A stretch of 64,000 nt of DNA, taken from a virus. Within the stretch, counting starts at the first letter, position 1; each line of letters starts with the position of its first letter. Positions 43,989 through 61,267 of this stretch are shown here, piece after piece. The notes under the pieces were generated by a model. That model saw only the letters and a program-made list of their open reading frames with translations, had not been told where the DNA came from and made no database searches. The DNA lies in the IMG/VR virus record IMGVR_UViG_3300049061_000067, positions 9 to 64,008 of that record; one strand, given 5' to 3'. Position numbers and translations under genes: made by a program.

Positions 43989-44077
43989 TGACGATGAAAG
44001 CAAAGGTAACAGCGCAAACAATCTCTTAGATGCGGCTGATATCTACGAGCGGGTAATGGTTCAATTAAAGGTGATAG

Positions 44078-44299: not shown

Positions 44300-44300
44300 C

Positions 44301-44423: not shown

Positions 44424-44521
44424 TCGGCTGCTAGCGCCGCTGATTTAAGTTACGACGCGAATGCGCGGGTTTAAGTATCGTCCAAAGGGGCGCTCAGGGT
44501 AAACAGGAGGACAATCAGACA

Positions 44522-44752: not shown

Positions 44753-44771
44753 CACGAAAGGGTTAGACATA

Positions 44772-46108: not shown

Positions 46109-46383
46109 TGGTAAAACGACTAGAACAGCCTGAATGGGGCTTTATGACACCCGCTGAATTGCAGCGCCGTCTGCTTTTAGAGTGTGACGCAGGCGAGCAT
46201 AAGCATGGCAAACTGCAATCAGCCCATGAGGTTTTCGCGGTTATCCTTGGTGAGCTACAGGGGTTCTGGGACAGCGTGCGCGACCACGACCCTGACCCGC
46301 AGGAGTTGTTGCAAATCGCAGCCGTCGCGCGACGCGGCATACTTGACCTGACTGAGGCGGCACGTAATGGCGTCATACGCTGA
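46108..46383 (+). CDS. Hypothetical protein
   Basis: ORF track. Confidence 0.35.
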   Translation: MVKRLEQPEWGFMTPAELQRRLLLECDAGEHKHGKLQSAHEVFAVILGELQGFWDSVRDHDPDPQELLQIAAVARRGILDLTEAARNGVIR

Positions 46384-46558
46384 GCTAAAGTTCAAGCCTA
46401 CAGGCAAGCGTCGTTACTGCCCGCATTGTCGTGCCACACGGTTGACGAAGATCTCCACAACTACCATTGAGTGGGACTGCTACGTCGAGGCATGTAAGCG
46501 CTGCGGTAACTGGCTCATTAAGTGGCCCAAGAAGACTTATGACGACTACATACGCTGA
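46367..46558 (+). CDS. Zn-ribbon protein
   Basis: CPHCR...CKRCGN. Confidence 0.4.
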   Translation: MASYAELKFKPTGKRRYCPHCRATRLTKISTTTIEWDCYVEACKRCGNWLIKWPKKTYDDYIR

Positions 46559-48869
46559 TTTTCTGGACAGCAAACGCATCACGGTTGCGCCGAGCGGGTT
46601 CACACCTGAGAGTCTGAGTTCGCATTCATTTGACTTTCAGCGTGACATTACCTGTTGGGCGTTAGAACGCGGCAAGGCGGCAATTTTCTCCGATTGTGGA
46701 ACAGGGAAAAGTTTAATGGAGTTAGACTGGGCTGAGCGTATAGTCCAAAAGCTCAATAAGTCAGTGCTAATCCTCGCACCATTGGCGGTGTCTAGGCAAA
46801 CAGTACGGGAAGGTGCAAAGTTTGGGATCGGGGCGCGTCTTGCTGTCCAGCAGTCGGACATAACAAAGCCCGCGATCTATGTCACCAACTATGAAAAGCT
46901 GCATCATTTCGATCCGTCTACGCTCGTCGGCGTGGTGCTGGATGAGTCGTCAATCCTGAAGTCCTACTCTGGCGCTACTCGTAATCTACTGGTTGAGCAA
47001 TTCGCCAACACGCCAATGAAGCTTTGCGCTACGGCTACGCCCGCACCCAACGACTACATGGAACTTGGCAATCACAGTGAATTCCTTGGTGTGCTAACGC
47101 GCACTGAGATGCTATCAACCTTCTTTGTTCATGATGGCGGTGACACAAGCAAGTGGCGGCTTAAGGGCCATGCTGAGGAAGAATACTGGAAGTGGGTATG
47201 CCAGTGGGCCGTGATGCTGCGTCAGCCTGCCGACTTAGGCTACGACAACAATGGCTTTGTGTTGCCGCCACTAAGCTATCACCATCACGTAGTCAAGTCA
47301 GCACGCAATCTTGACGGGTTCCTGTTTCCAGTGGAAGCGCAAACACTGCTCGAACGACGCGGGGCACGTAGGAACAGCCTAAGCGAGCGTGTTGAACTAT
47401 GCGCGTCGCTGGTCAACGAGTCAACTGAGCCATGGCTGGTCTGGTGCGACCTGAACGCTGAGGGTGACGCGCTGGCAAGATTGATCCCTGATGCCGTGCA
47501 GGTAGCAGGGCGTGACAGCGACGAAGCCAAGGAAGATCGACTGCTTGGGTTTGCCGAAGGACGCTATCGTGTGCTGGTGAGCAAGCCGAGCATTGCGGGG
47601 CACGGTCTAAACCTGCAAATCTGCTCTAACCTTGCCTTCGTTGGTCTAAGCGACTCATGGGAACAGTGGTATCAGGCAGTGCGACGTTGCTGGCGCTTCG
47701 GGCAAACTCGAGAAGTCAACTGCCACGTTATTACCAGTGAGGCTGAGGGCGCCGTGGTACGCAACATCCAACGCAAGGAAGCTGACGCCGCGCGCATGGC
47801 AAAGGAGATGGTGAAGCATATGTCGGTTTACAACACTGAGGCAGTGCATACGGGCACGGTCAGAACCGCTGACACTTACAAGACTGACGTGAAGCGCGGC
47901 GAGCGTTGGGAGATGCGGTTGGGTGATTGTGTTGAGCTGATCAAAGACGTGGCAAGCGATAGCGTTCACTATTCGATATTTAGCCCGCCGTTTGTATCGC
48001 TTTACACGTACAGTTCGTCTGAGCGCGATATGGGTAACGCGCGGGGCGACATGGAGTTCTATGCGCATTTTCAGTTTCTCGTTAAAGAGCTATACCGCGT
48101 GCTGTTACCCGGCCGCTTGCTGTCGTTTCACTGCATGGACATTCCGGCAATGAAAGAGCGTGACGGCTATATCGGCTTGAAAGATTTCCCTGGCGATCTT
48201 ATCCGCATATTTCAGTCAGCGGGGTTTATCTACCACTCACGAGCGTCGATCTGGAAAGATCCGTTGATTGAGGCAACACGCACCAAGGCGCTTGGACTGA
48301 TGCATAAACAAGTAGTCAAAGACAGCGCGATGTGTCGGCAGGGACTACCGGATTATCTGATTACCATGCGCAAGCCCGAAACGAACAGTGAGCCGATCGC
48401 GCGGCCCAACGGGTTTACGGAATTTATTGGCGAGGATGAACCGAAAGCGCGAAAAGGCGAAGCGGTTATTCGAGCTAGGGACATAGCCAATTATGCGGGC
48501 ATGACCAGCGATGATCCGGTTTACAGCCATCAAGTCTGGCGACGCTATGCCTCCCCTGTCTGGATGGACATCAGCCAGTCTGACACGCTACAACGTGAAT
48601 CTGCGCGAGAAGAGGCCGACGAGCGACATGTGTGCCCTTTACAGCTGCAAGTGATTGAGCGCGGACTGGAACTATGGACCAATGTGGGCGATGTGGTCCT
48701 AGATCCTTTTTCAGGCATTGGCAGCACTGGTTACGTAGCCGTGCAACGTGGGCGACGCTTCATCGGGTTTGAACTTAAGGCCAGCTACCACCAGCAAGCC
48801 TGCGCGAACCTGCGCAACGCAGAATCAGCAATAGAACAGACGACGCTGTTTAGCGAGGCCGCAGGATGA
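46539..48869 (+). CDS. SF2 helicase fused to a beta-class DNA methyltransferase (N4C/N6A; the SPPF motif suggests N4-cytosine)
   Basis: Walker A DCGTGKS, DExx VLDESS, motif III ATATPAPN. C-terminal half has IFSPPF (motif IV) before DPFSGIGSTG (motif I), the beta-class circular permutation. Confidence 0.6.
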   Translation: MTTTYADFLDSKRITVAPSGFTPESLSSHSFDFQRDITCWALERGKAAIFSDCGTGKSLMELDWAERIVQKLNKSVLILAPLAVSRQTVREGAKFGIGARLAVQQSDITKPAIYVTNYEKLHHFDPSTLVGVVLDESSILKSYSGATRNLLVEQFANTPMKLCATATPAPNDYMELGNHSEFLGVLTRTEMLSTFFVHDGGDTSKWRLKGHAEEEYWKWVCQWAVMLRQPADLGYDNNGFVLPPLSYHHHVVKSARNLDGFLFPVEAQTLLERRGARRNSLSERVELCASLVNESTEPWLVWCDLNAEGDALARLIPDAVQVAGRDSDEAKEDRLLGFAEGRYRVLVSKPSIAGHGLNLQICSNLAFVGLSDSWEQWYQAVRRCWRFGQTREVNCHVITSEAEGAVVRNIQRKEADAARMAKEMVKHMSVYNTEAVHTGTVRTADTYKTDVKRGERWEMRLGDCVELIKDVASDSVHYSIFSPPFVSLYTYSSSERDMGNARGDMEFYAHFQFLVKELYRVLLPGRLLSFHCMDIPAMKERDGYIGLKDFPGDLIRIFQSAGFIYHSRASIWKDPLIEATRTKALGLMHKQVVKDSAMCRQGLPDYLITMRKPETNSEPIARPNGFTEFIGEDEPKARKGEAVIRARDIANYAGMTSDDPVYSHQVWRRYASPVWMDISQSDTLQRESAREEADERHVCPLQLQVIERGLELWTNVGDVVLDPFSGIGSTGYVAVQRGRRFIGFELKASYHQQACANLRNAESAIEQTTLFSEAAG

Positions 48870-49177
48870 GCGACGTTCATGGCTCACGCGCCGCCGAGGC
48901 TGGTTGCTGTGCGTTGTTGCTGCTGGCAGGCATGGTGCTTGGCGTGGGGCTGAGCGTACTGATGGTTTGGTGGATTGCGGTGAGAGGTTAGCTATGAACA
49001 CAAAAGCAGACAACGACATCCTTATGGTAGCAATGATGAACATGCTCTTGCTGCTAATGGACATTTATATCACGGAAGAGATACCAAAGCGGGAACAGTT
49101 GACGGAGAGATTGCGCTAAAACAAGTTCCTCTTCTGGTTGCGTAAACGACACTTGCAGATGACGAAAGGTAAGACTA

Positions 49178-49621
49178 ATGAGAAGCCCAGTCACACAACT
49201 AATCGAACTGTTTCACGGTCTAACAGTGGACCAACAGGCATTGTTCCTCGATCAGGTTGACCCGCAGCCTGATGAGGTGGGGAAACCTGCTAAGAAGGCA
49301 CGTAAGGCGACGATAGTTCGTAAAGGATGCGCTGCCTGTGACTACTTTAAGTCAGCACCAATTCATCACGATCCTAACTTGGCAGAGTACCATGTCTATC
49401 AGCTTGCTAAGTCGAAGCGGGCGTCAGGGATGGCGGCAGCGATCAACAAGAGTCTGCAACGGCAGCATCAGTCGGCGGAACTTTGTACCCGTGTCAGCGA
49501 AGACGGCGACGATCCTGCTACCTGCGGGGAACCTGAGGGTAGCGGTATTCACGATCCGGCAATGGGTTATCGCAATTACCATCCATTCGCCGCATCTGCT
49601 CAGCGCGCGGCGGGAGATTGA
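49178..49621 (+). CDS. Hypothetical protein
   Basis: ORF track. Confidence 0.4.
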   Translation: MRSPVTQLIELFHGLTVDQQALFLDQVDPQPDEVGKPAKKARKATIVRKGCAACDYFKSAPIHHDPNLAEYHVYQLAKSKRASGMAAAINKSLQRQHQSAELCTRVSEDGDDPATCGEPEGSGIHDPAMGYRNYHPFAASAQRAAGD

Positions 49622-49622
49622 G

Positions 49623-49820
49623 ATGGCGTCTAACATCAATGCGACCGACCCCTACGCCAATCCCTTCGAGTGGTCCAACGCCTATCCGTATGAAGCACCG
49701 GAGGATCGGCTATTCGGCTTGCTGCCATGCCCGTGGCAATGTGAGCAGGGACTGCTCCCGCTTGTCAGTGGTGGCTACATTGCCTGTCCGTCGTGTGGCA
49801 GCGAGGAACGAGCAGGCTAA
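49623..49820 (+). CDS. Zn-binding small protein
   Basis: CPWQC...CPSCG. Start refined. Confidence 0.35.
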   Translation: MASNINATDPYANPFEWSNAYPYEAPEDRLFGLLPCPWQCEQGLLPLVSGGYIACPSCGSEERAG

Positions 49821-50020
49821 TGACCCAATGCCTCTCCTGCGGCTACGTCACGCTTGAAGACGCCCCTGCCTGCTGGCATTGCGAGGACGCACATCAGCGG
49901 TTGCTGGAGCGCCTGACTGATGGCGACGATGGCGCGTTGACGTGGCCCGAGCTGGCAGCATGGGCGCAGAGTGATGTGGCGCCAAGGGGGCAGGTGGCAC
50001 GAGTCTGGAAGATTGGCTAA
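49820..50020 (+). CDS. Zn-binding small protein
   Basis: CLSCG...CWHC. TAATG overlap. Confidence 0.35.
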   Translation: MTQCLSCGYVTLEDAPACWHCEDAHQRLLERLTDGDDGALTWPELAAWAQSDVAPRGQVARVWKIG

Positions 50021-50027
50021 ACCCGCA

Positions 50028-50252
50028 ATGGAATGCTCAAACTGCAATGGCAGGACTTACGTAGTCGACTCGCGCCAGGACGAGAACACGCGACGGCGGC
50101 GTTACTGCTGTCGCTCATGTAAGGTCAGGTTCACTACCTGCGAGATCACTGTCGCCGAGTACGAGAGATTGCAGTCCGTGCGTATCAACATGGCAGCAAT
50201 CAACGCGGCTATTGATACATTGAACGCGGTTAAGAAAGCGGTGCGTGGCTGA
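50028..50252 (+). CDS. Zn-ribbon protein
   Basis: CSNCNG...CCRSC. Start refined. Confidence 0.35.
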   Translation: MECSNCNGRTYVVDSRQDENTRRRRYCCRSCKVRFTTCEITVAEYERLQSVRINMAAINAAIDTLNAVKKAVRG

Positions 50253-50348
50253 TGGACTTACCATTACAAGGCGTCAGGGCTCAGCGGCGTCTCGTTTGCC
50301 GTGTAAATAATCATTGACATCTAACCCGCTCGGATTATGATTCAGATT

Positions 50349-50462
50349 ATGAGGAAATGCCAACGCTGCAAGTACGAATGGAAGCCGAAAACGGCTAATC
50401 CAAAGGAATGCCCAAACTGTAAATCAAGAAAGTGGGAGAAAGATGCTAAACGTACACGTTAA
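50349..50462 (+). CDS. Mini zinc-ribbon protein (37 aa), paralogue of 57518-57658
   Basis: MRKCQRCKYEWKPKTANPKECPNCKSRKWEK. Promoter TTGACA-16-TATGAT at 50296-50323. Confidence 0.35.
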   Translation: MRKCQRCKYEWKPKTANPKECPNCKSRKWEKDAKRTR

Positions 50463-51108
50463 GATAACAGGATTAACACCGCTATTGATGCACGCGGACA
50501 ACATTGAATGGTCTGACGCGATGGATGAGTGGCGCAAAGATCCGAGTAATAAGGCGATGTCTAAAGCTGGCGATGATCGTACCCCGCCTTGGCGCTGGAT
50601 TGGCTCATTGAACACTGACGGAAAGATTATCACGATTCCCAGCGAGTACATCATGGGTTGTATGATGGCGGGCGGTGCCCAAGTGCCAACAGGATCGGGC
50701 AAGAAGACGTTCAAAGCACAATCGCAAAGCGGTCTACTGTGCCCTGAGTTTCACTGGCCGCTACACGTCAACGGCTCAGGTGCCACGGTATCAATGGCTG
50801 ATATCAACGCGCTAAAAGATGGCAAGCTCAAGTTCTCTCAACACTCAGATAGGACGCGAGAGTTGGGATTCGCGTTGTTCGTAAAGCGTGCAAAGGTTGG
50901 GCAGTCTAAGCATGTTCGTGTACGTCCGCGATTTGACCAGTGGTCCACAGAGGGGCGTGTGGCTATTATTGATGAAGCTATCACCCCAAAGGTACTACAG
51001 CAAATCCTTGATATTGCCGGACGATACAAGGGGCTGGGCGACTGGCGACCGGGCGGGAAGACGCCGGGACAGTTTGGGATGTTTGAGGCGGTGGTTACAG
51101 AGGATTGA
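50443..51108 (+). CDS. Hypothetical protein (221 aa)
   Basis: ORF track. Confidence 0.45.
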   Translation: MLNVHVKITGLTPLLMHADNIEWSDAMDEWRKDPSNKAMSKAGDDRTPPWRWIGSLNTDGKIITIPSEYIMGCMMAGGAQVPTGSGKKTFKAQSQSGLLCPEFHWPLHVNGSGATVSMADINALKDGKLKFSQHSDRTRELGFALFVKRAKVGQSKHVRVRPRFDQWSTEGRVAIIDEAITPKVLQQILDIAGRYKGLGDWRPGGKTPGQFGMFEAVVTED

Positions 51109-51539
51109 GATTGGTGTGGTTCGGTGGGGTTCGGTATTGGTGCGGTACGGTCAGGTGTGGCCAGGCACGGTTCGGTCCGGCAAGGTAGGGGCGTCAATGG
51201 CGCAGCAATCATCATTTTGGTTCGGTCTGGCTTGGCTAGGCAAGGCTCGGTACGGCGTGGACCGGCATGGTAAGGCGAGGCTAGGGCATCAATGGTGCAA
51301 TTTGCTGTTTTATGGTTTTTGGTGTGGCGAGGTATCGGCGAGGCGAGGCACGGCTAGGTATGGTGGGGCGGGGTCTGGTCCGGTCGGGTTAGGCAAGGGA
51401 GCCAATGGCTCACGCAATGCTAAACCTATCTATCTGTGGCTGGGCGCGGTATGGCTTGGCTAGGTCTGGTGGGGTCAGGTTCGGCTGGGTGTAGGTTAGG
51501 CGTGGTTTGGTGAGGACGCCAATGGCGTGAAAGGGAAAC
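51109..51539. repeat. Non-coding G+T-rich degenerate tandem repeat array (about 4 units of ~93-117 bp, each ending in (G)CCAATGG(C/T)G; internal GGTTCGGT sub-repeats)
   Basis: Seen directly. The CAATGG anchors at 51185, 51280, 51393 and 51510 fall in different reading frames, so the repeat is at the DNA level. Confidence 0.5.
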
Positions 51540-51749
51540 GTGGCCGAAATAATCCAATGTCCCGATTGTAACGGATCGGGTCGCGTTACAGACTGGACGG
51601 CAATGATTATGCCGCCGACATTTATAATACTTTGGGTTTTTGACAAGTTAGATAGAGATTGTCCTGTTAAGTATACGAGTCAACGCTGCAAGCGATGTAA
51701 GGGCAAGGGGCAACTCAGGGTTGAGCCTGACTCACTATCTGAGGCGTAA
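51540..51749 (+). CDS. DnaJ-type zinc-finger protein (two CxxCxGxG repeats)
   Basis: CPDCNGSGRV and CKRCKGKGQL. Confidence 0.45.
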   Translation: MAEIIQCPDCNGSGRVTDWTAMIMPPTFIILWVFDKLDRDCPVKYTSQRCKRCKGKGQLRVEPDSLSEA

Positions 51750-51759
51750 AGATAAATCC

Positions 51760-52251
51760 ATGAAACCTCCACAATTAGTCAACGGTATCCCCTACGGTCC
51801 TGACGTGCGTAAGTTAGAAGAGGCATTTCCATTGCCTGATGAAGATCAAGTCATCCGACATACGGAGTTTGAGGCACTACTAAAAATCCCAGCTAAAACG
51901 CAACGCTATTATGGCGTTATCAATACTTGGCGCAAACGATTGCGCAATGAGCGAAACATTGACAGTGAGTGGATTCATGGCGTCGGGTTGAAGATCCTTA
52001 ACCCGGCTGATCGGCTAAAGGAATCGGAGCGCAATGTTAAGCAGGGCATCCGACATACCGGACGTGCATTTAGACGGCTTGCGATTGTACCGCGAGATCG
52101 TCTTGATGCTATCGGTCAAGCTCGATATGATCATGCAATAGGTATAGCAGCAAAGTTGACACAGGCCGGGCGGGACGCAAAACGGGAGTTAGCAATTGAC
52201 CTTGCTCCAATAAAGTCGCTGCCTAAGCCAAAGCTTGTTAGTAACGGATAG
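51760..52251 (+). CDS. Hypothetical protein
   Basis: ORF track frame. Start refined to MKPPQL. Confidence 0.4.
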   Translation: MKPPQLVNGIPYGPDVRKLEEAFPLPDEDQVIRHTEFEALLKIPAKTQRYYGVINTWRKRLRNERNIDSEWIHGVGLKILNPADRLKESERNVKQGIRHTGRAFRRLAIVPRDRLDAIGQARYDHAIGIAAKLTQAGRDAKRELAIDLAPIKSLPKPKLVSNG

Positions 52252-52409
52252 GCACGTTTGAACCTGTAAAGCTAGTAGTGCGGGGCGGGAGGCTATGAAA
52301 GCTCAGGGCTGCGGGTAGGCATTGGGCTTATGTCCGTTGAAAACGATGAATTGAGCTGAGCCGTTTAACCGTAGTAGCGCGTAAATTAGCAACCTTCAAG
52401 GGAGTGCCG

Positions 52410-52820
52410 CTAATCAGACGAACGCGGCTTATCAATCTCGCTATAGCTTATCCCATGTGCGTCCAGCAAGCCTTTGAGCCGTTTCATCTGATACTCATGC
52501 AGCGTCAGGCGGGTAGCTTGCTGAGCACTTAGTCTGCGTTCGTCTTCAAGGTCCAACATCGCATCCGTGGCTTTGCGCTCCCAATGCTCACGCTCACTGC
52601 GTAGCCTCTCAGCTCCGGCAATTGCTTGTGTAGCGGCTTGGATGAGTGACACGTCGGTGCTTACGCTAACCTGTCTTGTTTCAGCATTGAGTTTGGCGAT
52701 TTCAGCAGGTTCTCGGCGTCGCCGTGTGAGCCAGCCACCTATCCATCCAAGGGATGATGCAAGCACAAGCCACAACACTTGTAGCAGGCTGTGAGGAATG
52801 GCAGGGGATTCGAGTTGCAT
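52410..52820 (-). CDS. N-terminal TM plus coiled-coil protein (i-spanin/holin-like)
   Basis: LLQVLWLVLASSLGWIGGWL is a TM segment followed by a long charged coiled coil. Start chosen at the internal Met after the upstream stop. Confidence 0.35.
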   Translation of the reverse strand: MQLESPAIPHSLLQVLWLVLASSLGWIGGWLTRRRREPAEIAKLNAETRQVSVSTDVSLIQAATQAIAGAERLRSEREHWERKATDAMLDLEDERRLSAQQATRLTLHEYQMKRLKGLLDAHGISYSEIDKPRSSD

Positions 52821-52827
52821 GGGCGGA

Positions 52828-53304
52828 TCATCGAAGTACCTGGTTGAGTTGCTGTAGCGCCTGGGCCAGCGTCTGGTCCTTCTGCTCGTCTTGCTTGCGG
52901 TCCTTGATGACGAGATTAAACGTAGGAGTCTTGCGGTGCTGGCGCGGGTTCTTCTGGCGTGGGAACACAAGCGAACTATACTGCGCCGACTCAAGTGGGA
53001 AGGCTCGATCCAGCGGCACATCTTTGTAACCCATCCAGTCACTCACGCAGGCAATGTCTGCTTGATCTTCTGACGAGAAGAAGCCGCCGTTTTCAAACCA
53101 GAACACTGTTACCTTTTTGCCGTTGACCTCTACGCCCTTGGGACACGGGACCTTCATCACATTCCATGAGAAGTGAATAAACGGGCGAAAGATATACCTG
53201 AAGAACGCCTTGCGATACCACGGGGTAGCAGGGTCAAGCTCCCACTTCCAGTGAGCCACCATCCAGATCCTGTCCGAAGATTCTGTGACTCGCTCTGGAA
53301 CCAC
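52828..53304 (-). CDS. Hypothetical protein (158 aa; possibly lysis-associated)
   Basis: ORF track. Confidence 0.35.
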   Translation of the reverse strand: MVPERVTESSDRIWMVAHWKWELDPATPWYRKAFFRYIFRPFIHFSWNVMKVPCPKGVEVNGKKVTVFWFENGGFFSSEDQADIACVSDWMGYKDVPLDRAFPLESAQYSSLVFPRQKNPRQHRKTPTFNLVIKDRKQDEQKDQTLAQALQQLNQVLR

Positions 53305-53306
53305 TG

Positions 53307-53477
53307 CTAGCCGCCCCCCTGTCCCTTGCCGGGGTTATCAATGTCGCCTTGCGGCTCCGGCTTCGGTGTCGGTGCGGGAGCGGGCTGCGGCTGCTTAGGC
53401 TGCGTCGGCTTAGTTGGCTGCGTCGGCTGATTCCGTTGTCTCTCCCTGTCCTTGTCCATCTCGTCTTCTGTGTGCAT
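53307..53477 (-). CDS. Pro/Gln-rich small protein (56 aa)
   Basis: MHTEDEMDKDRERQRNQPTQPTKPTQPKQPQPAPAPTPKPEPQGDIDNPGKGQGGG. Below the ORF-track cutoff. Confidence 0.3.
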   Translation of the reverse strand: MHTEDEMDKDRERQRNQPTQPTKPTQPKQPQPAPAPTPKPEPQGDIDNPGKGQGGG

Positions 53478-53521
53478 GGTTGCTTGTCACCTTTCTCGGG
53501 TTATGAAACTGTAAACTAACT

Positions 53522-53956
53522 CTACGCCTCTTTGCTGAGGCGTACCACATTTGCCAGACACAGTTTGCGCTTGCGAAACACGCGCGGGAACAGTCCGATC
53601 TCCACTGGAAACGTCTGGCCGCTGCGCTCTCTCCCGTAGAGCACCGTATCGCGTCGGCCCATGCTGCGAGTCTGCATTGCCTGTCCGAAGCTTTGAACGT
53701 AGCCTACGTGCCCGTGACGATAGTTTTCCGGCACCAGCTCGATCAGATCCAGCCCAGCCATCTCGTCAGTCACGTAGCCAAAGATCGCTTCGGCACCCGG
53801 CGTAGCGTAGATTACCTTCTGCGTCTCGATGTCCACCAGCACGAAGCCTGCTTTGTCTGCGCCCCAGATCTTGATAGCGTCAATGTCGCTTTGAGTGAGC
53901 ACGGACGGATCGATGTCGTCTACCACGGCTACCAGTTTGTCTAGTTCTGAGCTCAT
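53522..53956 (-). CDS. Standalone FixL-like heme-PAS domain protein
   Basis: AEAIFGYVTDEMAGLDLIELVPENYRHGHVGYVQSF...GRRDTVLYGRERSGQTFPVEIGLF aligns with the Bradyrhizobium FixL heme-PAS [36 protein letters not shown]...GRIVTGKRRDGTTFPMHLSIGEM, including the proximal His. Confidence 0.55.
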   Translation of the reverse strand: MSSELDKLVAVVDDIDPSVLTQSDIDAIKIWGADKAGFVLVDIETQKVIYATPGAEAIFGYVTDEMAGLDLIELVPENYRHGHVGYVQSFGQAMQTRSMGRRDTVLYGRERSGQTFPVEIGLFPRVFRKRKLCLANVVRLSKEA

Positions 53957-54300
53957 TGTTTCAGGCTAATTCGCAGAAAGTTGAACACGAAGCCAAGCAG
54001 CAGCATTATTACACTGGCAACCAACCCTTTGATCCACTTGCCGTTTTCAATTGCTTTGGCCTTGGTTTCCTTGGCCGCTTCTTCCAGCATGTGGATGCGC
54101 TGGTTGATAACACTGATTTGCGCCGTCGCCATGTCCGACTCAAGCTTACCAAGCGTCTTGTTTAGCTGGACCAGTTGAAACTCGACGCCAACCATCTTCT
54201 CGGATAGTTGCGAGACTCGCCCCTCGCGCTCGCGTAACTGCTCCTGTATGCCAGCCAGTCCGCGCGTAACAAGTTCGACAAGCTTCTGTTCATCGGTCAT
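53953..54300 (-). CDS. Coiled-coil protein with a C-terminal TM anchor (holin/spanin-like)
   Basis: C-terminal GLVASVIMLLLGFVFNFL. Confidence 0.35.
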   Translation of the reverse strand: MTDEQKLVELVTRGLAGIQEQLREREGRVSQLSEKMVGVEFQLVQLNKTLGKLESDMATAQISVINQRIHMLEEAAKETKAKAIENGKWIKGLVASVIMLLLGFVFNFLRISLKQ

Positions 54301-54498
54301 TTAGTCGGGGGAGGTAGCGTTCATTGACATTGGGCTATAACAGCGCCTCGGCTCCCCGCAGAGTCTGGAGCATGTCCCTTCACGCCGTAAACCCTCGCAT
54401 TACCGAGACGCTGCCACTCATTGCCGCCCCTCAGTAGCCCCTCCAACACGTGCGACGAATGTACGCGTTGCATTTCACCAAAAGGCGGCAATCTTGCG

Positions 54499-54744
54499 TT
54501 AGACTGGTGGCTCAGCGGGCGCTGGCGTCGCTGGCGTGTTCTCGCTTACTGCGCCAGCAAGATTGTCGCTTGAGGCGTCCAATTCTGTCACCAGCGCGTT
54601 GATGTTTGTCGCGTCTGCGATATCGTCTGCTGCGATGGCATCCTTGATGCGCTGCGAGATGCCGCGAATCAGCACTACTGCCGAGGTATCAACCGAGGTA
54701 TTGCGGGCTACTGCCGCCTGAAGTCCACTTAGATCAACTGCCAT
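54499..54744 (-). CDS. Hypothetical protein
   Basis: ORF track. Confidence 0.35.
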   Translation of the reverse strand: MAVDLSGLQAAVARNTSVDTSAVVLIRGISQRIKDAIAADDIADATNINALVTELDASSDNLAGAVSENTPATPAPAEPPV

Positions 54745-54746
54745 TG

Positions 54747-55085
54747 TTAGTCTCCTTTTGACTGTTCATTAATTGCGGCTTCCTCCGCGTCGGACGAAGC
54801 GTTAAGCTCCTTAACTGCTGCGTCAATTTTAGCTTGGATGCCACCTTCCAGCAGTTCCAGAATCAGGTCCAACTTTGCATTGATAAACCCAACATCAGGC
54901 AACTGCACGCCTCGCACTGCTTCAAGGATCTCGTCAAGCTTGGTGCTAACGTCGCCACCTGTTCCCTTTGCCAGCACATCAGTCCGACGATTGTAAGCAC
55001 CGATAAACGCATTAAGCAGGAAGTAGACATTGCCCTGCTTCTCAATTTCCTGCACCAACTTGTCTGTACGTCGAAATGGGAACAT
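54747..55085 (-). CDS. Hypothetical protein
   Basis: ORF track. Confidence 0.35.
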   Translation of the reverse strand: MFPFRRTDKLVQEIEKQGNVYFLLNAFIGAYNRRTDVLAKGTGGDVSTKLDEILEAVRGVQLPDVGFINAKLDLILELLEGGIQAKIDAAVKELNASSDAEEAAINEQSKGD

Positions 55086-55499
55086 TCACTCCTGCTTTCC
55101 ATACCAAGGTTGACAATCGTCAGGCAAGGTATAGAGCGTGTTCGGTACGATCTCACCTGCTTTGAACATTCGCCAAGCTTTTATGTTGCGCCACACGCGA
55201 ACCTCGCACGACGTGACTGCTTTGAACCAGCGATCCGTGATGATTGCTTTTACCTTGTCGCCTGATTGGATGTCGCTGGTTGAGAGTGAAGCATCGGGGT
55301 TGACTCTTCCGTCTCGCATGGGAGCAACCAGTCGCCACTGCGCAAAGATTTCCCTAGCTTCTGTGGGATCGGTGAAGGTGAACAGGACCATCTTGCCGTC
55401 TTCGAGGCAGGCAACTGACTTATCAGGTTCCTTGACTGTGCAAGTGACAACCTTGGGCTCTTGGACCATGAACGCGAGCAGGAGTAACAGGCTGATCAT
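55086..55499 (-). CDS. Secreted or periplasmic protein (signal peptide MISLLLLLAFMV)
   Basis: Start refined to the Met with the ATGA overlap. Confidence 0.4.
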   Translation of the reverse strand: MISLLLLLAFMVQEPKVVTCTVKEPDKSVACLEDGKMVLFTFTDPTEAREIFAQWRLVAPMRDGRVNPDASLSTSDIQSGDKVKAIITDRWFKAVTSCEVRVWRNIKAWRMFKAGEIVPNTLYTLPDDCQPWYGKQE

Positions 55500-55690
55500 T
55501 CCATCTCTCCAACGAGCGATGTTTCGCCAATCCTTACCGCAACCGTCTTCCAATAGACCAGCCGCTTGCGAAGGACTGGAGCGCAATACGTTACCTTCCC
55601 ACGCTCAACTACAAACCCGGCACAGAGGTACGCCGTTGTCACTCTGTACAGTCCGTCTCTCAATTGCAATCTCCCTGCTTCAGCCGCCAA
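55496..55690 (-). CDS. Hypothetical small protein
   Basis: ORF track. ATGA coupling to the downstream gene. Confidence 0.3.
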   Translation of the reverse strand: MAAEAGRLQLRDGLYRVTTAYLCAGFVVERGKVTYCAPVLRKRLVYWKTVAVRIGETSLVGEME

Positions 55691-55781
55691 TCAAGCCACT
55701 CCTCAAACGAGTGGTCTTTGGCAAAGTTGCGCGCTGGTAATTGGCGTTCAAGTTCGTAGATGTAGTGGGCTTCGGTGTAGG

Positions 55782-56315
55782 TCACGGTTGCAACGCTGCC
55801 TCCAGTCGGTTGACTTGAACCTTGAGCTTGCGCTCGAGTTCTTTTTCATCACGCGCAATCACCGTAGCGCTGCGCGCCTCGGCGCTGGTCCCAGTGCCGG
55901 AATAGAACACCACCAGCGATGCAAGTATTCCCTCGGCAATGTTCGCGGCTTGCTGAATACGCGGATGGGCAGCAAAGTTCTGACGGTTGATGATGACCCT
56001 GAAACATTGTAACGCGCTAAGGGATGCCTGAAACTTCCGCGCCCTCTTCTCAGCGGCTGAAAGTTCCGAGGGAATGGCGTTGAATGCATCCTGCAAGGTT
56101 AGCGCGCATCCGGCACCATCGTTAAAGTCGGTGATAATTGCGGTAGCCTTGGCTTGCGGAATAGCACCAGCACTGACAAGTGAGTTAACCAGCGGGCCGG
56201 ACGCCGCAAGTGCTAGTCGAAACGATTTGATTGCAGTGCTGCCGCCGCAGCCGTATTCAAGGACCACGGTTAATAGCAGTGCAGCAATAAGCTTGCTTCG
56301 TGAGAATAGCTTCAT
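55782..56315 (-). CDS. Putative lipoprotein (177 aa)
   Basis: MKLFSRSKLIAALLLTVVLEYGC is a signal peptide plus Cys. Strong RBS AAAGGAGAT. Confidence 0.45.
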   Translation of the reverse strand: MKLFSRSKLIAALLLTVVLEYGCGGSTAIKSFRLALAASGPLVNSLVSAGAIPQAKATAIITDFNDGAGCALTLQDAFNAIPSELSAAEKRARKFQASLSALQCFRVIINRQNFAAHPRIQQAANIAEGILASLVVFYSGTGTSAEARSATVIARDEKELERKLKVQVNRLEAALQP

Positions 56316-56477
56316 AAAGGGATCTCCTTTAGGGATCGTCCAAGATGCGCCAGCAGTGTACCATTTTCAAGTAGTCTACGGCGAAAAAGTTACGGAGCTA
56401 AGTTGAGCTTGACTTGTAATACTGATTTATAGTAAGTTGCCGTCGCTTGAAAGTTTAGTGAGTTGAAAGGTAAATAA

Positions 56478-57284
56478 ATGAGATACTTGTCAATGTTAAT
56501 TCTCGTGGTGCTAGCCGCTCTAACAAGTGGCTGTAACTACGCCGAGGAACAAGGAACCGTCGCGGTGGAGACTAGTTACGGCAAGATTGTAAAAGTTCAC
56601 GAACCGGGAGAATCGTTTAGCTGCTTCTCGTACGGTTGCGACTCTTACGAAGTTGACTTGCGCGATCACATGGACGGGGTAGACTGTGCGGGTGTAACCA
56701 GCGACAATATTCCTTTCTACATGAAGGTAGACGTGGTTCACAAGCCTATCAAAGATCGCGTTGCGGAGTATATTTCGTTATTCGGGGCGGAACCTGATGG
56801 GCGTAGTCAAAAGCGTTGGGCCGTATTAAAGCAGCATGTGGGAAACGCCTGCCGCAATGCTACGTCGGGTCGCTATAACGCTTATGATTTGCGTTCTAAG
56901 CAAGCCGAAGTATTAGCAGCAATTCAAGCTGAGCTTGCTCCAAAACTGAGCGCGGAAATGGCCTTGAGCCTTTCAAGTGTTGGCATGGAGATTCAGCCAC
57001 AGTTTTCAGACCCACGTATTGACGAAGCAGCAAACGCTGTCGTGGCAGCACAGAAGCAAAAGGAAGCTGAGGGCGCGTTAAAGGCCGCTGCTGATATTCG
57101 CGCAGAACGTCAACAGGTAGAAGCGCGGATTTACGCAAACCCGCTGGCTTATAAAATTGAAGAACTGAAACTCCTTAAGGAAATTGAGCAAGTACGCGCC
57201 GAAGGGATTGCACGACACCAAGGAACGCTCATTCTTGGTCAAACGGGCATCACGCCACAACTGCAAATAGGAGGGCAAAAGTGA
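56478..57284 (+). CDS. SPFH/Band-7 (prohibitin/HflKC-like) domain lipoprotein
   Basis: Lipoprotein signal MRYLSMLILVVLAALTSGC. C-terminal coiled-coil region ...RIYANPLAYKIEELKLLKEIEQVRAEGIARH is typical of the SPFH family. Confidence 0.55.
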   Translation: MRYLSMLILVVLAALTSGCNYAEEQGTVAVETSYGKIVKVHEPGESFSCFSYGCDSYEVDLRDHMDGVDCAGVTSDNIPFYMKVDVVHKPIKDRVAEYISLFGAEPDGRSQKRWAVLKQHVGNACRNATSGRYNAYDLRSKQAEVLAAIQAELAPKLSAEMALSLSSVGMEIQPQFSDPRIDEAANAVVAAQKQKEAEGALKAAADIRAERQQVEARIYANPLAYKIEELKLLKEIEQVRAEGIARHQGTLILGQTGITPQLQIGGQK

Positions 57285-57511
57285 AGCTCATAGGAATAGT
57301 TGTTGGCATCCTTTTAGCAATTAGTTTTCTGACAGCGCTATACTTAATCGTGCGTAGTTTCCATCATCAGTGGAAATGGCAAAATAAAGTAAATGAAAAC
57401 CGGATGCGTAGAGCTGTGATGGAAGAGTTTGATATTCAGTACGAGGTTGACGAGAAAGGTTTTGTTGCTCCCGTTAAGCGTAGCGGCAGAGGACATAGAT
57501 CGCCAATGTAG
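57281..57511 (+). CDS. Small single-TM protein (76 aa), co-operonic with the SPFH gene
   Basis: LIGIVVGILLAISFLTALYLIV. ATGA overlap. Confidence 0.45.
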   Translation: MKLIGIVVGILLAISFLTALYLIVRSFHHQWKWQNKVNENRMRRAVMEEFDIQYEVDEKGFVAPVKRSGRGHRSPM

Positions 57512-57517
57512 ACCTTA

Positions 57518-57658
57518 ATGAAAAAGAAAATCACTAAGGAGCAGTACCATTGTAAATGTGAGCGTTGCGGACATGAGTGGGTCAGTCGTAAAGGCGTTCC
57601 AATGGTCTGCCCGAGTAAACGCTGTCATAACCCACGCTGGAATGAAAAGGTCAGTTAG
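57518..57658 (+). CDS. Mini zinc-ribbon protein (46 aa)
   Basis: CKCERCGHEW...CPSKRCHNPRW. Paralogue of 50349-50462. Confidence 0.35.
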   Translation: MKKKITKEQYHCKCERCGHEWVSRKGVPMVCPSKRCHNPRWNEKVS

Positions 57659-57665
57659 AACGCCA

Positions 57666-59555
57666 CTAGACCACATTCACCCGCACTGCCACCACGCCAC
57701 ACGTCGACTGAAACGTGATTGTGCGACTTTGCCGCTTGACCTTGACGCTAAACTGTTTAACCGTGCTGGTTGGACCGGCGCTCCAGACCAGCGGCGACAC
57801 TGTTACCTGCCCGTCGCTGCCGGTGACTCGCACTTCTGTTGGACCGCTTAAATCTTGCAGCGTCACAGCAATTGTTCCAGTGCTGTTTCTGCGGATCGAC
57901 ACTGATGCTGGTGCTGAGATGGTGCAGGGAACTGTTGGCGGTGGTTGCGGCTCAGGCTCCGGTGCTGGCGCAGGCGCTGTGCCGGGCTCAGTCTGCGTCT
58001 GCTGCACCCACGCGCTACCTGTCCACTTGTACCAGAAGTTATCAGTACCCAACACGTAGACGGTCTGTGCCAGATACTTGTACACCGAACCCTCGCCGCC
58101 GCCTGCCTGTACGCCGTCACGAAGCGTCTGTCGCGCGCTGCCAATGGTCCATGTTGCATGGGCAGCGTCAACGATGGTCGTTGCCTTGGTACCATCAGGG
58201 CTAGGCTCAGGCAGCGGACTGGGTGAAGGCATTGGCGTTGGTGCCGGAATCGGCGTGCCACCTGTCCACGCCAGATACGACGGCACTCGCCGTGCATGCT
58301 GGTTGTAGTTCTTCGGCGTGCCGTCCATCATGGCGCGCACTCCATCGCTGCCACCGTAAGCCGCGTCCCACAGCTCGTCACCTGCTGTCTTGAAGAATGG
58401 ATCGCCTGATAGTTGAAACGCCTTGCCGAACGCAGGCAGGATGGTGGAGATCGCCTGTCGCGTGCTTGGCAGCCACCATGCTTCCAACGCTGTCCACGGG
58501 AATGCAATGTCACCCTTCTCGTAGCGTGTCGGATTGACTGACGTACCACCGTGGTAAAAGTAGTGGAAGCCGCGTATGCGCTTGCCTGAGACTTGCTCGA
58601 TCTGGTCCTTGATGTACGGACCGTTGCTGTACAGGTGCCGACAACCGCGCGTGATCTGGCTCTTGACGTTCTCTTTAACTGTCGCATTGCCGGTTAACTC
58701 ATACACGTCACACAACGCAGCCAGCAGCAGCCCCACCATAAACGGCTGCATCACGCCGACCAGCGAACCGCCATCATCGTCAAGCCAATCGTCATTCCAA
58801 ACCCATGCGCCGTCTGCACGTTGCGTACGCCCGAAGTATTGGACTGCGGCTGACTCGACGTCTGCAAGGTACTGCGCTCGCAATTGTGCGCCATTGGTTG
58901 CCGTGCCGCCTGCTGTTAGCGGAAACGAGTCAGGCAACACCTTCGCCAGCCATGTTGCATAGTGCAGCGTGAATGCACCCTCACGCAGGTCGTACAGTGC
59001 CGAGTTCAAGCGTCGCAGCACGTAAATGTCAAAGAAGTAGCGGGTGTAGGAGTTGATCCAGTCCCATAGCTCGGGCCTGCCGTCTTCCGCCCGAAGGGTT
59101 AGTCCGGCTATGCCTGCATGGCGTGGTGGAGGGGCCGCGTTGTCTTCACCTTGTGGCGGCGGTAGCCATGCGCGAATCCTGCCTTCGCCAATCCACGCGC
59201 CGTTTTTCCACCACTCGTCTGCGGCCGTGCGATGCAATTGCATCATGTAGTCGTTTCCCGATCTTGCGTAAGCAATACGCAGACTTTGAGGCAGGTCATA
59301 GTAATGATGGTTTACGTAAACATCGAATGGACCGTTAGCCCAATTGCTAACAGCCTGTTTCCATGCATCCTCAGACTCAAACTGCTCACGCAGCGGTTTA
59401 GGCGGGGATAATACATGCGGTGACTCCCCATGCTCCCGCGCCTTGGCAACCTGCGTCTGGTCGAACCAGCTGTTGCCGATTGGGGTAAGTGGGCCAGTGA
59501 TGAATTCTGCTGCTGACATGGCTGAGTGCTCCTTGAATGGATATAAGAAAGACAC
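57666..59555 (-). CDS. Large multi-domain enzyme: putative (alpha/alpha)-barrel polysaccharide hydrolase/lyase, Pro-rich linkers, small Trp-rich domain and C-terminal Ig-like domain. Tail-associated depolymerase or lysin.
   Basis: 629 aa. Linkers PIPAPTPMPSPSPLPEPSP and PAPAPEPEPQPPP. Position at the end of the tail-fibre operon. Confidence 0.4.
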   Translation of the reverse strand: MSFLYPFKEHSAMSAAEFITGPLTPIGNSWFDQTQVAKAREHGESPHVLSPPKPLREQFESEDAWKQAVSNWANGPFDVYVNHHYYDLPQSLRIAYARSGNDYMMQLHRTAADEWWKNGAWIGEGRIRAWLPPPQGEDNAAPPPRHAGIAGLTLRAEDGRPELWDWINSYTRYFFDIYVLRRLNSALYDLREGAFTLHYATWLAKVLPDSFPLTAGGTATNGAQLRAQYLADVESAAVQYFGRTQRADGAWVWNDDWLDDDGGSLVGVMQPFMVGLLLAALCDVYELTGNATVKENVKSQITRGCRHLYSNGPYIKDQIEQVSGKRIRGFHYFYHGGTSVNPTRYEKGDIAFPWTALEAWWLPSTRQAISTILPAFGKAFQLSGDPFFKTAGDELWDAAYGGSDGVRAMMDGTPKNYNQHARRVPSYLAWTGGTPIPAPTPMPSPSPLPEPSPDGTKATTIVDAAHATWTIGSARQTLRDGVQAGGGEGSVYKYLAQTVYVLGTDNFWYKWTGSAWVQQTQTEPGTAPAPAPEPEPQPPPTVPCTISAPASVSIRRNSTGTIAVTLQDLSGPTEVRVTGSDGQVTVSPLVWSAGPTSTVKQFSVKVKRQSRTITFQSTCGVVAVRVNVV

Positions 59556-59624
59556 GGTTAGATCCGCCGCCTGTGGTCGTTGCGCTCCTGATGTGTAGCT
59601 CGTGCCTGGAAGTTCTTTTTCTCG

Positions 59625-60362
59625 CTAAACTCCCCACTTACCTCTTAGATAAGATGTCCATGCGTCCCTTGCCGTTGATCCAAGTGCGGATTTGAATAAA
59701 ACAATTTCGTGAAGCGTGGCTTTTAGTACATTTTGTGACCCATTACCAAAAGCACCAATCATTAGATCTTTGGTCGTTGCCGTACCCGTCACAAGCGACT
59801 GGACTCCGTCAGATGCTCCGTTGCGATAATACGAGACTGTGCTACCAGAGATAATCGCTGCAATTAGACTCGTTCCCGCGGTATTATTAGCCTTAGTCCC
59901 TGCCGCGATAAATGGTCTGTCTATATTGGGAAATCCACCTGCGATCGTCGTCAGATAGTAAAGATACGCCCCCGCGCTCGCATTGTTATCCTTCGATATA
60001 ATCGACATCACATTCGAATCCATAAAGGCTCCTTGTATGACGACGAAAATAGAACTATCCGCGTTCAAGGCTAGATCCGCATTATTGGCGACAGTCATAA
60101 ACTTTGAATCAAAGGCAATGCCTGGCAGGCCGTTTAGGCTGCCGGTATTGAAGGCGGGGCGGCTGCCAGAAGTGGCTTGTGAGGCATGGTATGAATTGCC
60201 GCTAAAGTCATTCCATTGCTGTACCGTTTGTCCGTTAGTCGCGAGAGTTGTTCCGGCATCGTTATAGACACCCTCATCAGCTTTAAGCCACAAAACGAGA
60301 TCAGTCGTTGGGGGTGCGCCGCCCGCTGCTCTTGATGCTGGAAATCCTACTATATGGCCCAT
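59625..60362 (-). CDS. Tail fibre / receptor-binding protein with a ConA-like lectin (LamG) fold
   Basis: 245 aa. Sequence pattern compatible with the Laminin_G_3 family. Position in the tail-fibre operon. Confidence 0.4.
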   Translation of the reverse strand: MGHIVGFPASRAAGGAPPTTDLVLWLKADEGVYNDAGTTLATNGQTVQQWNDFSGNSYHASQATSGSRPAFNTGSLNGLPGIAFDSKFMTVANNADLALNADSSIFVVIQGAFMDSNVMSIISKDNNASAGAYLYYLTTIAGGFPNIDRPFIAAGTKANNTAGTSLIAAIISGSTVSYYRNGASDGVQSLVTGTATTKDLMIGAFGNGSQNVLKATLHEIVLFKSALGSTARDAWTSYLRGKWGV

Positions 60363-61267
60363 TACGTTAATGTCACTTTCAGGCTGATAGTAAGCCGTTG
60401 AATTGAAGTCACAGAATCGACGTTAAAGCGAACAATGTCACCCGCCGATATTGAGGTAGTCCATCCTGTCAAGGTGGCATCTTGTGACTTAGCGGCAGAC
60501 GAGATTGCTGGCACGGCGGCCGCTGTTATTGAATCCGCGTCCGTTGGGGGAAAGTTTGCGTAAGTGTCCTTCCAAATGTCGACAACGATTGAGCCGGATT
60601 GATCTGCAAGCATCGTTATAGCGTTGACGGCACAGGCGAAATCTATTGGCCCAAGGTCGCCTTTTATTCCTGTTGTGATTGTTGAGCCGCCGCCATCGAT
60701 AACAAAGGTCAGCGTTGTTGTTTTTAGGTTTGTCTTAACTGTTGGATTTGGGTAAGTGCCAGCAAGATCCCCGCCCGCTGATCCGCTGGGAGCCGCACTG
60801 GAAACGGTATTTCCCAGCAGGCTCTGCATCTGCATGTTGGTCCCGTCATAGACCAGATCAACCCACTGGCCTGCGCGAATGTCGTTGTCAGCAAGGTCGG
60901 TAGTAATCCCACCAGCAGCTTTCTTGATTGTCTTGGCACCCAGACCGTTGAAGTTGACCGTGCAGGCGCCTGTGTTTGCGGTATTGGCCTTGAATCGATA
61001 GTGCTGACCTGTCTCGTAGGCAACTGGTGCGGGAAACAATGTGGCAACATAGGTATCAGTCGATCCCGCATCGGCGGCAAAACGCGAGCTAAACAGATGC
61101 TTGATGATATTCAGCCAACTTATGCGTTTGGTTGTTCCTGTGGTCGCGTCAGTTAGATCGTCCTTATCGACAATTGCGCTAAAGTCGTCACCTGCTGGTG
61201 CCGTTGTAAGCTCCGTAAACTGACTCCATTGTTCATTAGGCATGTTCTTTCTCCATGAGTACGCCAC
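60362..61267 (-). CDS. Tail fibre protein
   Basis: 301 aa, Gly/Thr/Ser-rich. Position. Confidence 0.45.
   Translation of the reverse strand: MAYSWRKNMPNEQWSQFTELTTAPAGDDFSAIVDKDDLTDATTGTTKRISWLNIIKHLFSSRFAADAGSTDTYVATLFPAPVAYETGQHYRFKANTANTGACTVNFNGLGAKTIKKAAGGITTDLADNDIRAGQWVDLVYDGTNMQMQSLLGNTVSSAAPSGSAGGDLAGTYPNPTVKTNLKTTTLTFVIDGGGSTITTGIKGDLGPIDFACAVNAITMLADQSGSIVVDIWKDTYANFPPTDADSITAAAVPAISSAAKSQDATLTGWTTSISAGDIVRFNVDSVTSIQRLTISLKVTLT

Follow-up and report, generated by a model that had tools for sequence, protein, structure and literature searches.

A stand-alone PAS gene at the end of a phage late operon

The window analyzed here is a 64,000-nucleotide (nt) stretch of the IMG/VR virus record IMGVR_UViG_3300049061_000067 (positions 9 to 64,008 of that record), and its minus strand carries a gene for a 144-amino-acid (aa) stand-alone PAS protein of the heme type. 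The initial annotation of this gene had described it as a FixL-like oxygen-sensor domain lying in a late, lysis-like cluster of a phage. Its open reading frame (ORF) begins with ATG, and the translation is identical to the sequence quoted there. The window as a whole belongs to a tailed phage: it encodes a major capsid protein (12612-13946), a prohead protease, a portal protein (27110-28654), a large terminase (TerL; 28707-30044) and a primase. The PAS gene directly follows, and slightly overlaps, a gene for a small XhlA-like membrane protein, and both belong to the 3' end of the late transcription unit, with the tail-fibre genes preceding them and the convergent early genes close behind (Table 1).

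The PAS protein has a simple layout. A two-helix N-terminal cap, specific to its family, occupies residues 1-35, and the PAS core spans residues 36-140. A domain scan detected PAS only, with no kinase, output or other domain, in keeping with the single-domain description given earlier; a helix-turn-helix (HTH) domain was likewise absent from both the Pfam scan and the structural model. Membership of the PAS superfamily follows from curated models as well as from the fold. PF00989 scored 25.9 bits against a cut-off of 22.6, TIGR00229 (PAS) scored 31.3 bits against a cut-off of 22.9, and the AlphaFold2 (AF2) model (pLDDT, the predicted local distance difference test score, of 89) has canonical PAS topology, with helices at residues 2-15 and 22-35 preceding the core.

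Table 1. The PAS gene, its membrane-protein partner and neighboring features of the late-operon end (positions in the window; TM, transmembrane).
Feature	Position	Strand	Basis
XhlA-like holin-type tail-anchored membrane protein, 115 aa	53953-54300	-	synteny, TM scan, PHROG/Pfam
ATGA overlap of XhlA-like stop and PAS start, 4 nt	53953-53956	-	sequence
Stand-alone heme-type PAS gene, 144 aa	53522-53956	-	ATG start, ORF list, PAS models above cut-offs
His83 codon CAC, predicted proximal heme ligand, F-alpha helix	53708-53710	-	alignment, conservation
Met99 codon ATG, candidate distal (sixth) heme ligand, FG loop	53660-53662	-	alignment with FG214 Met172, conservation
Terminator-like 8-bp GC-rich hairpin overlapping last codons and stop of PAS gene	53523-53544	-	consensus scan
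56-aa proline-rich ORF, coding status uncertain	53307-53477	-	directly downstream of PAS gene
Conserved 158-aa protein downstream of the pair	52828-53304	-	conservation
Last gene of the late operon, membrane protein of about 136 aa	52410-52820	-	sequence, synteny

The PAS protein falls in the FixL/DosP heme class

When the protein was compared by phmmer with all PDB chains, the heme domain of RmFixL (1d06) ranked first (E=1.9e-9), followed by FG214 (10jx), EcDosP and BjFixL. Every match at E <= 0.007 was a heme-PAS domain, and the sole non-heme entry in the list, ARNT2, was non-significant (E=0.37). A profile built from 28 family members ranked the same structures highly, with 10jx at 9e-11 and 1d06 at 2.6e-10. 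HMMER gave the same alignment of LVPENYRHGHVGYVQSF with the proximal-His region of FixL that the initial annotation had proposed, and it also recovered the proposed match to the distal G-x-R-x-G-x-TFP segment. NCBIfam returned partial matches to the heme regions of DosP and FixL. Searching the PDB with the AF2 model by Foldseek gave a probability of 1.00 to many PAS structures, and ranks 1 to 31 were all heme-PAS, ahead of the first LOV domain. The gap in E-values is modest, however (1e-8 to 1e-6 for heme-PAS and about 3e-6 for LOV), so that the fold alone would not discriminate between the two.

The residue that ties the protein most closely to this class is His83, which HMMER places in the column of the iron-ligating His of RmFixL, BjFixL, DosP and FG214 (His156). 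Conservation of the proximal His had been set beforehand as a test of the assignment; His83 is kept in 94/94 full-length homologues, which range from 42 to 99% identity, and in 28/28 sequences of a smaller alignment of family members. With the ligating His in its column and heme-PAS domains as its closest characterized relatives, the protein can be placed in the FixL/DosP heme-b cluster (cluster 3 of Xing et al. 2023; PMC10468136), and the assignment made in the initial annotation to the heme-binding FixL/DosP class is supported by sequence matches, fold matches and the conserved His alike.

The His is missing from about 40% of the sequences in the FixL/DosP cluster, some of which bind cofactors other than heme (PMC10468136), and this raises the possibility that this PAS domain carries another ligand, or no cofactor at all, and that its conserved His has a different role. 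The modest Pfam scores and the closeness of the LOV domains in the Foldseek ranking also lean that way. We nevertheless consider such an arrangement quite improbable: His83 and Met99 are invariant, and position 97 is always Arg or Lys, across the whole identity range of the family; all significant PDB sequence matches are heme proteins; and the flavin motifs (the LOV Cys, and the FAD Trp at F-alpha) are absent from the alignment. The phage protein is thus very probably heme-binding, judging by these sequence comparisons.

The distal pocket departs from FixL and is probably closer to that of FG214

The distal side of the pocket is strongly conserved within the family and departs from FixL. His83, Met99 and Gly100 are invariant in 94/94 members, position 97 is Arg or Lys in 94/94 and position 101 is Arg or Lys in 93/94, giving a family motif R97-S-M99-G100-[KR]101-R102 with one more FG-loop residue than in FixL and in the cellular relatives. 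In FixL, an Arg of the FG loop (Bj Arg220 / Rm Arg214) hydrogen-bonds bound O2. Profile columns align position 97 of the phage protein with an Arg of RmFixL, which we take to be the column of BjFixL His214, position 99 with the FixL Ile, and position 104 with the FixL distal Arg. Position 104 is Thr here and varies across the 94 members (S 26, T 20, K 20, R 16, M 7; Arg or Lys in 36). The phage protein therefore lacks the distal Arg of FixL and has basic residues at 101 and 102 instead. The label "FixL-like" accordingly holds for the heme-PAS class and fails for the distal pocket.

Beyond the pocket, FixL (S. meliloti 1d06/1ew0; B. japonicum 1drm) shares with the phage protein the PAS fold, the proximal-His column and, except for the one residue inserted in the phage protein, the spacing from that His to the G-x-[RK]-x-G-x-x-F-P strand. 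The phage protein differs in having no kinase, in carrying Thr104 and a Met (Met99) in place of the distal-pocket Ile, in its one-residue FG-loop insertion and extra two-helix N-terminal cap, and in being encoded by a phage. It scores 20.6 bits against the FixL equivalog model NF041777, whose cut-off is 850, and has neither HisKA nor HATPase_c. No response regulator that could stand for FixJ was found among the window genes scanned, a scan that covered part of the ORFs.

FG214 of Fimbriimonas ginsengisoli (10jx/10jy) is the closer comparison, being both the best PDB profile match and the best Foldseek match. In FG214, His156 is the proximal ligand and Met172, 16 residues further on, is bound to the iron in a crystal reduced with dithionite, His175 takes the distal site in the ferric state, and the changes in heme ligation drive a monomer-dimer switch, that is, a change in protein-protein contact and not in an enzyme (bioRxiv 10.64898/2026.03.15.711900). 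HMMER aligns His83 and Met99 of the phage protein with His156 and Met172, the 16-residue spacing being the same, and the two proteins share the motif LxPExFRxxH...R-x-M-G at an identity of about 18-19% in the structural alignment. They differ in that FG214 has an HTH DNA-binding domain, which the phage protein lacks, and in that the column of FG214 His175 holds Arg102, so that ferric bis-His ligation at that position is impossible in the phage protein.

DosP (EcDOS; 1v9y, 1vb6, 1s66) gives significant sequence and fold matches too, its proximal His again falling in the shared column. On the distal side DosP has Met95 as ligand and Arg97 at M+2, and its M95-S-R97 is reminiscent of M99-G-[KR]101 in the phage family (Arg at 101 in the window's protein). 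The equivalence of the two Met residues comes from this M-x-R motif only, since the HMMER alignment does not superimpose them. DosP also carries GGDEF and EAL output domains, none of which is present in the phage protein, and its loop after the Met is about three residues shorter; its equivalog model gives 26.4 bits against a cut-off of 857.

Given a Thr in the column of the FixL distal Arg and Met99 in the column of FG214 Met172, we infer a six-coordinate ferrous heme with His and Met as axial ligands. A His/Met six-coordinate redox or gas sensor in the style of FG214 or DosP is, by this alignment, more likely than a five-coordinate O2 sensor of the FixL type.

A viral family related to the sensor domains of tandem-PAS kinases

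A search of a large protein database yielded 97 homologues of 97-150 aa, most of them 142-150 aa long and many on contigs of 60-82 kb. All the family contigs that we examined have phage gene contexts. One copy, 99% identical, lies on a 65,761-bp JGI/IMG-VR contig (IMGVR_UViG_3300049332_000001), one related contig comes from a soil metagenome, and the metagenome-assembled genome GCA_040383985.1 carries a related contig; a scan of IMG/VR for further loci found 3 family members only. Comparisons between family members gave nonsynonymous differences (pN) of 0.21-0.28 against saturated synonymous differences (pS) of 0.68-0.85, indicating that the PAS gene is under strong purifying selection.

No PAS relative was found by tblastn among 50,697 cultured-phage records, and megablast of window positions 44000-64000 against the same records returned nothing. 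A pattern scan of 185,579 species genomes revealed no prophage copy; it detected only distant kinase PAS domains, 29-41% identical, in Alphaproteobacteria, Xanthobacteraceae and metagenome-assembled genomes of Myxococcota. The initial annotation had pointed, weakly, to a rhizobial or other alphaproteobacterial host, and these two negative results, among species genomes and among cultured phages, leave that suggestion without backing.

A wider profile search of 1.84 billion representative sequences gave 48,542 hits, and its per-protein ranking was dominated by multi-PAS proteins. When the hits were re-scored domain by domain, the nearest cellular domains reached 65-77 bits at 42-46% identity. 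The 174 closest retain the residues of the phage pocket almost without exception (His in 174/174, Arg97 in 169/174, Met99 in 171/174) and have in common the motif LVPERFRxxHPxHRxxFxxxPxxRxMGxGRDLYGxRKDGxEFPVEIGL. Five of these cellular relatives were scanned, and all are tandem-PAS proteins; four carry HisKA, two of those with HATPase_c as well. Tandem-PAS histidine kinases (uncharacterized; for example P0104, P0102 and P0159) are thus the closest relatives overall, P0104 being 42-46% identical to the phage PAS core, although in them the domain is embedded in a multi-domain kinase. The 35-residue N-terminal cap and the additional FG-loop residue are absent from these kinases, which mostly have Arg or Leu in the FixL R220 column. 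The phage family, for its part, is marked by the cap, with invariant L8 and W31, by the FG-loop insertion and by a distinctive C-terminal strand. Because its nearest cellular counterparts sit in tandem-PAS kinases with the same motif, the phage protein looks like a captured kinase heme-PAS domain, one that would have gained its cap, FG insertion and C-terminal strand after capture from bacteria.

The PAS gene is paired with a gene for an XhlA-like membrane protein

The product of the gene immediately upstream of the PAS gene starts with a coiled coil, about 90 aa long, and has its only TM segment (residues 93-111 of 115) at the C-terminal end. This is the architecture of XhlA, and the TM segment is kept throughout the family alignment. 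We compared 10 related loci, one of them near-identical to the window and nine diverged, down to 42% identity for the PAS protein and 27% for its partner. A homologue of the XhlA-like gene is the immediate upstream neighbor of the PAS gene in 10/10 of them, and no other neighbor is common to more than 5. The ATGA overlap between the two genes recurs in 9/11 junctions, the remaining two having spacers of 1-2 nt; this count takes locus L005 at the ATG consistent with the family, 18 nt inside the called gene. The overlap suggests that translation of the two genes is coupled. The partner family numbers 36 homologues, whose contigs agree in length with those of the PAS family, and the two families share roughly 30 contigs.

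Similarity to known holins is spread across the partner family. Among its 19 members tested, 15 match phrog_937 "hemolysin" (XhlA-type; best 2e-7) and 12 match phrog_689 "holin" (best 1e-8), and the window's protein matches both weakly. The commonest Pfam family is XhlA (PF10779), found in 11/19 members with a best E-value of 3.6e-5 and always below the gathering score. Neither XhlA of PBSX nor SPP1 gp24.1 kills by itself: both of these holins, whose TM segment is C-terminal, need a second holin with two TM segments (PMC6316719). The phage partner is alike in architecture, but no XhlB-like holin or endolysin was found next to the pair in the window.

The pairing bears on two readings in which the PAS protein would act without a phage partner. 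In the first, it would be a decoy that heterodimerizes with tandem-PAS kinases of the host and so blocks or mimics a redox or oxygen two-component pathway. Dimerization by way of N-cap and beta-sheet is common among PAS domains, the phage protein brings no output domain, and its nearest cellular relatives are precisely such kinases, with three to six PAS domains plus HisKA and HATPase and 42-46% identity in the core. Yet a gene at the 3' end of the late operon would come on late for taking over the host, the overlap or adjacency with a phage membrane gene in 10/10 loci points to a phage partner, and the N-cap and one-residue FG insertion are specific to the phage family and absent from the cellular relatives. 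We regard the decoy as rather unlikely. Its more specific form, titration of the FixL/FixJ pathway as put forward in the initial annotation, finds no support: the closest cellular relatives are generic tandem-PAS kinases and not FixL, and the FixL equivalog score lies far under its cut-off.

In the second, the protein would sequester free heme, against its toxicity or to starve host enzymes, and would not signal at all. Its small size, solubility, predicted heme pocket and lack of an output domain are what one would expect of such a buffer. Against this, surface residues of the N-cap and beta-sheet are strongly conserved, obligatory pairing with a membrane protein is unexpected for a simple buffer, and expression late, near lysis, leaves little time for a metabolic gain; a role as a heme scavenger is highly unlikely in our view.

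The operon end has some features of a lysis cassette

The end of the operon is the usual place for phage lysis genes. The PAS gene lies between the XhlA-like gene and, further downstream, the last gene of the operon (Table 1). The product of the latter begins with a TM-like segment, LLQVLWLVLASSLGWIGGWL, followed by RRRR and a coiled coil; the segment falls below the Kyte-Doolittle hydropathy threshold of our scan and was read by eye. This protein is conserved in 4 related loci, L008 has a similar protein with an N-terminal TM segment and coiled coil, and its only family match is a weak one to phrog_1397, a family of unknown function. When the conserved 158-aa protein between it and the pair was checked as a candidate endolysin, it was not recognized as such. 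The 56-aa proline-rich ORF is kept only in the near-identical locus L002 and has no TM segment and no Pfam match. As for the hairpin at the end of the PAS gene, only a weak T-rich tail stands behind its stem, and the region contains 10 terminator-like hits where shuffled sequence predicts 6.6 +/- 2.7; with a total so near the shuffle expectation, it is weak evidence for a terminator, though it might attenuate transcription into the genes downstream.

Several related loci carry additional small membrane proteins beside the pair. Peptides of 46-55 aa with two TM segments flank it in L004 (6447-6590), L005 (6453-6611), L011 (7509-7649) and L003 (6720-6887), those of L004 and L011 being 41% identical, and L013 has a 102-aa protein with three TM segments instead (8439-8747). 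The 2-TM peptides look like holins of class II or of the pinholin type. Ten other mid-size ORFs of the window were scanned against PHROGs and gave tail-fibre, glycosyltransferase and epimerase matches, with no lysin among them. The position of the pair and the TM peptides of its relatives fit a lysis cassette, but the window itself has no such peptide, which makes this reading of the region plausible and not proven. The "late, lysis-like cluster between coiled-coil/TM proteins" of the initial annotation therefore stands as regards the late-operon end and the small membrane and coiled-coil genes, whereas its lysis part is only partly borne out, with a partner below threshold and no endolysin.

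The pair could also form a membrane-anchored heme sensor with an output other than lysis, such as superinfection exclusion, control of late expression or assembly, or sensing of membrane energization, in which case the coiled-coil protein would be only an anchor or signaling helix. The pairing and overlap would fit such a sensor equally well. The partner's similarity to holins and XhlA lies under curated thresholds, no endolysin was found beside the pair, and genes for an SPFH/Band-7 membrane scaffold pair lie 2.5 kb away. We give this a low probability nonetheless, since 12-15 of the 19 partner members have full-length matches to the holin and XhlA PHROGs, the pair stands at the operon end among small TM proteins, a typical site of lysis genes, and holin-like peptides with two TM segments occur beside it in several relatives.

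Two further loci in this part of the window deserve description in their own right. The SPFH/Band-7 gene (56478-57284, plus strand) encodes a lipoprotein (lipobox LTSGC; PF01145 at 7e-10; phrog_200) and overlaps by 4 nt a gene for a 76-aa protein with an N-terminal TM segment (57281-57511, plus strand), an arrangement that resembles an SPFH-NfeD pair. Both genes are on the strand opposite to the late tail-fibre and lysis-like region that surrounds them. Between the tail-fibre genes and the small-gene cluster lies a gene for a 629-aa protein (57666-59555, minus strand) with a Pro-rich linker and a C-terminal Ig-like region. It has no family match; homologues occupy the same position in 5 related loci, and one relative has a faint beta-helix match. 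A depolymerase is one possible identity, the missing lytic enzyme another.

A probable heme sensor that may tune holin triggering

The reading that we favor, tentatively and at somewhat less than an even chance, is that the heme-sensor PAS protein acts on its XhlA-like membrane partner and thereby tunes holin triggering, and with it lysis, to oxygen or redox state. The protein would be a cytoplasmic, stand-alone heme-b sensor with His83 as proximal ligand and Met99 as the probable sixth ligand in the ferrous state, and the basic residues 101 and 102 would be placed to contact a bound gas or the heme propionates. A redox change or a bound gas (O2, CO or NO) would drive the Met ligand off the iron or let it return, and the FG loop would move with it. 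Because a PAS protein of this kind has no enzymatic or DNA-binding output, its signal must exit by protein-protein contact; the probable contact surfaces are the 35-residue N-terminal helical cap and the face of the beta-sheet. The most probable target would be the cytoplasm-facing coiled coil, about 90 residues long, of the XhlA-like protein encoded by the overlapping gene. XhlA-type proteins permeabilize the membrane together with other holins, and the timing of the holin trigger would therefore follow oxygen or redox state, with the PAS protein serving as a cytoplasmic antiholin or co-holin equipped with a sensor. That a small protein of the cytoplasm can regulate a holin has a precedent in phage T4, whose antiholin RIII acts on holin T (PMC8385771). 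RIII and the phage PAS protein are unrelated in sequence.

Several points weigh against this proposal. Heme binding is deduced from homology alone, the profile alignment places a Thr in the FixL distal-Arg column, and the ungapped HMMER alignment offsets Met99 from DosP Met95 by 2 residues. Adjacency and overlap of the two genes indicate co-expression, not physical interaction, and the window's partner scores 12.9 bits against the XhlA gathering cut-off of 34.7. Finally, an endolysin was not found in the cluster when the small genes scanned in 52410-56315 were searched with Pfam and PHROGs, and a second, multi-TM holin was not found in the window, either by tblastn with the 2-TM peptides of the relatives or by TM scan.

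A fuller version of the proposal is a sensor-gated holin, which would be the first of its kind. The heme protein would bind the XhlA-type coiled coil, and host respiration would decide whether lysis is held back or set off; the module is shared across a whole clade of uncultivated soil and environmental phages. This more specific claim we consider doubtful.

Relation to known phage sensors

Timing of phage lysis is set by holin clocks and sometimes by sensed signals, as in T4 lysis inhibition and VqmA-Phi. We know of no phage shown to carry a heme-based gas or redox sensor, nor of any holin system with a cofactor-binding sensor, and full-text literature searches found no paper on a phage heme-PAS protein, on an oxygen-sensing holin regulator or on a sensor domain coupled to a holin. 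Other viral PAS proteins, namely giant-virus kinases, the Atu_ph07 kinase and uncultured-phage "PAS domain" proteins, are at most 18% identical to the PAS model. The nearest functional parallel is VqmA-Phi of vibriophage VP882, a PAS receptor that couples an environmental cue to a lysis decision (PMC8284805). This PAS-HTH transcription factor has the autoinducer DPO as its ligand, carries no heme and controls a lysis-lysogeny switch, and it is related to the phage protein by the PAS fold only.

The domain itself is thus a new member of a known family; its stand-alone form paired with an XhlA-like protein is new in phage, and the function, if confirmed, would be new as well. Whatever its function, the gene belongs to a well-populated viral family of stand-alone heme-type PAS proteins that is absent from the 50,697 cultured-phage records searched. 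If the pairing is functional, it would give a directly testable instance in which a virus, at release, reads how oxygenated or reduced its host is, of relevance to soils and sediments with fluctuating oxygen. A minimal heme-PAS protein of 144 aa with a purely protein-protein output would also be attractive for the study of PAS signaling and for biosensor engineering.

The host and other features of the window

Besides its structural genes, the window has genes for a beta sliding clamp of the bacterial type and for a PD-(D/E)XK nuclease. Identity of the major capsid protein to those of actinophages does not exceed 36%. TerL (minus strand) gave the only strong match to a named virus, being 64% identical (E=1e-151) to that of "Methanosarcina virus MetMV" (MK170447, metagenome-assembled). 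No other window ORF of at least 60 aa matches MetMV, and the GC content is 53% in the window versus 42% in MetMV. We rejected an archaeal host; the beta clamp favors a bacterial one. Either very different viruses have exchanged a terminase, or the host assigned to MetMV is questionable.

The plus strand at 46467-48869 encodes an 800-aa fusion of an SNF2/DEAD-type helicase in its N-terminal half and an N6/N4 DNA methyltransferase in its C-terminal half (phrog_16/62, phrog_67); related loci show PF01555. In the head-morphogenesis module, adjoining the major capsid and protease genes, are two glycosyltransferase-like genes and a nucleotide-sugar epimerase (11243-12592, 16384-17169 and 17166-18119, all on the minus strand), which may serve in virion glycosylation or in modification of the host surface.

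Between the genes at 50443-51108 and 51540-51749 lies a non-coding region of about 420 nt (51113-51530, plus strand) made up of approximately four units of 95-117 nt. Each consists of degenerate 5-nt periodic repeats (GGNNN / CGGTN) and ends in a box of the form ...GG(G)CNNCAATGG(C/T)G, and these conserved boxes lie at about 51190-51202, 51285-51297, 51398-51409 and 51515-51526. Rfam gave no match in the whole window, this region included. The stretch may represent an iteron-containing origin, or else a structured or non-coding RNA region.

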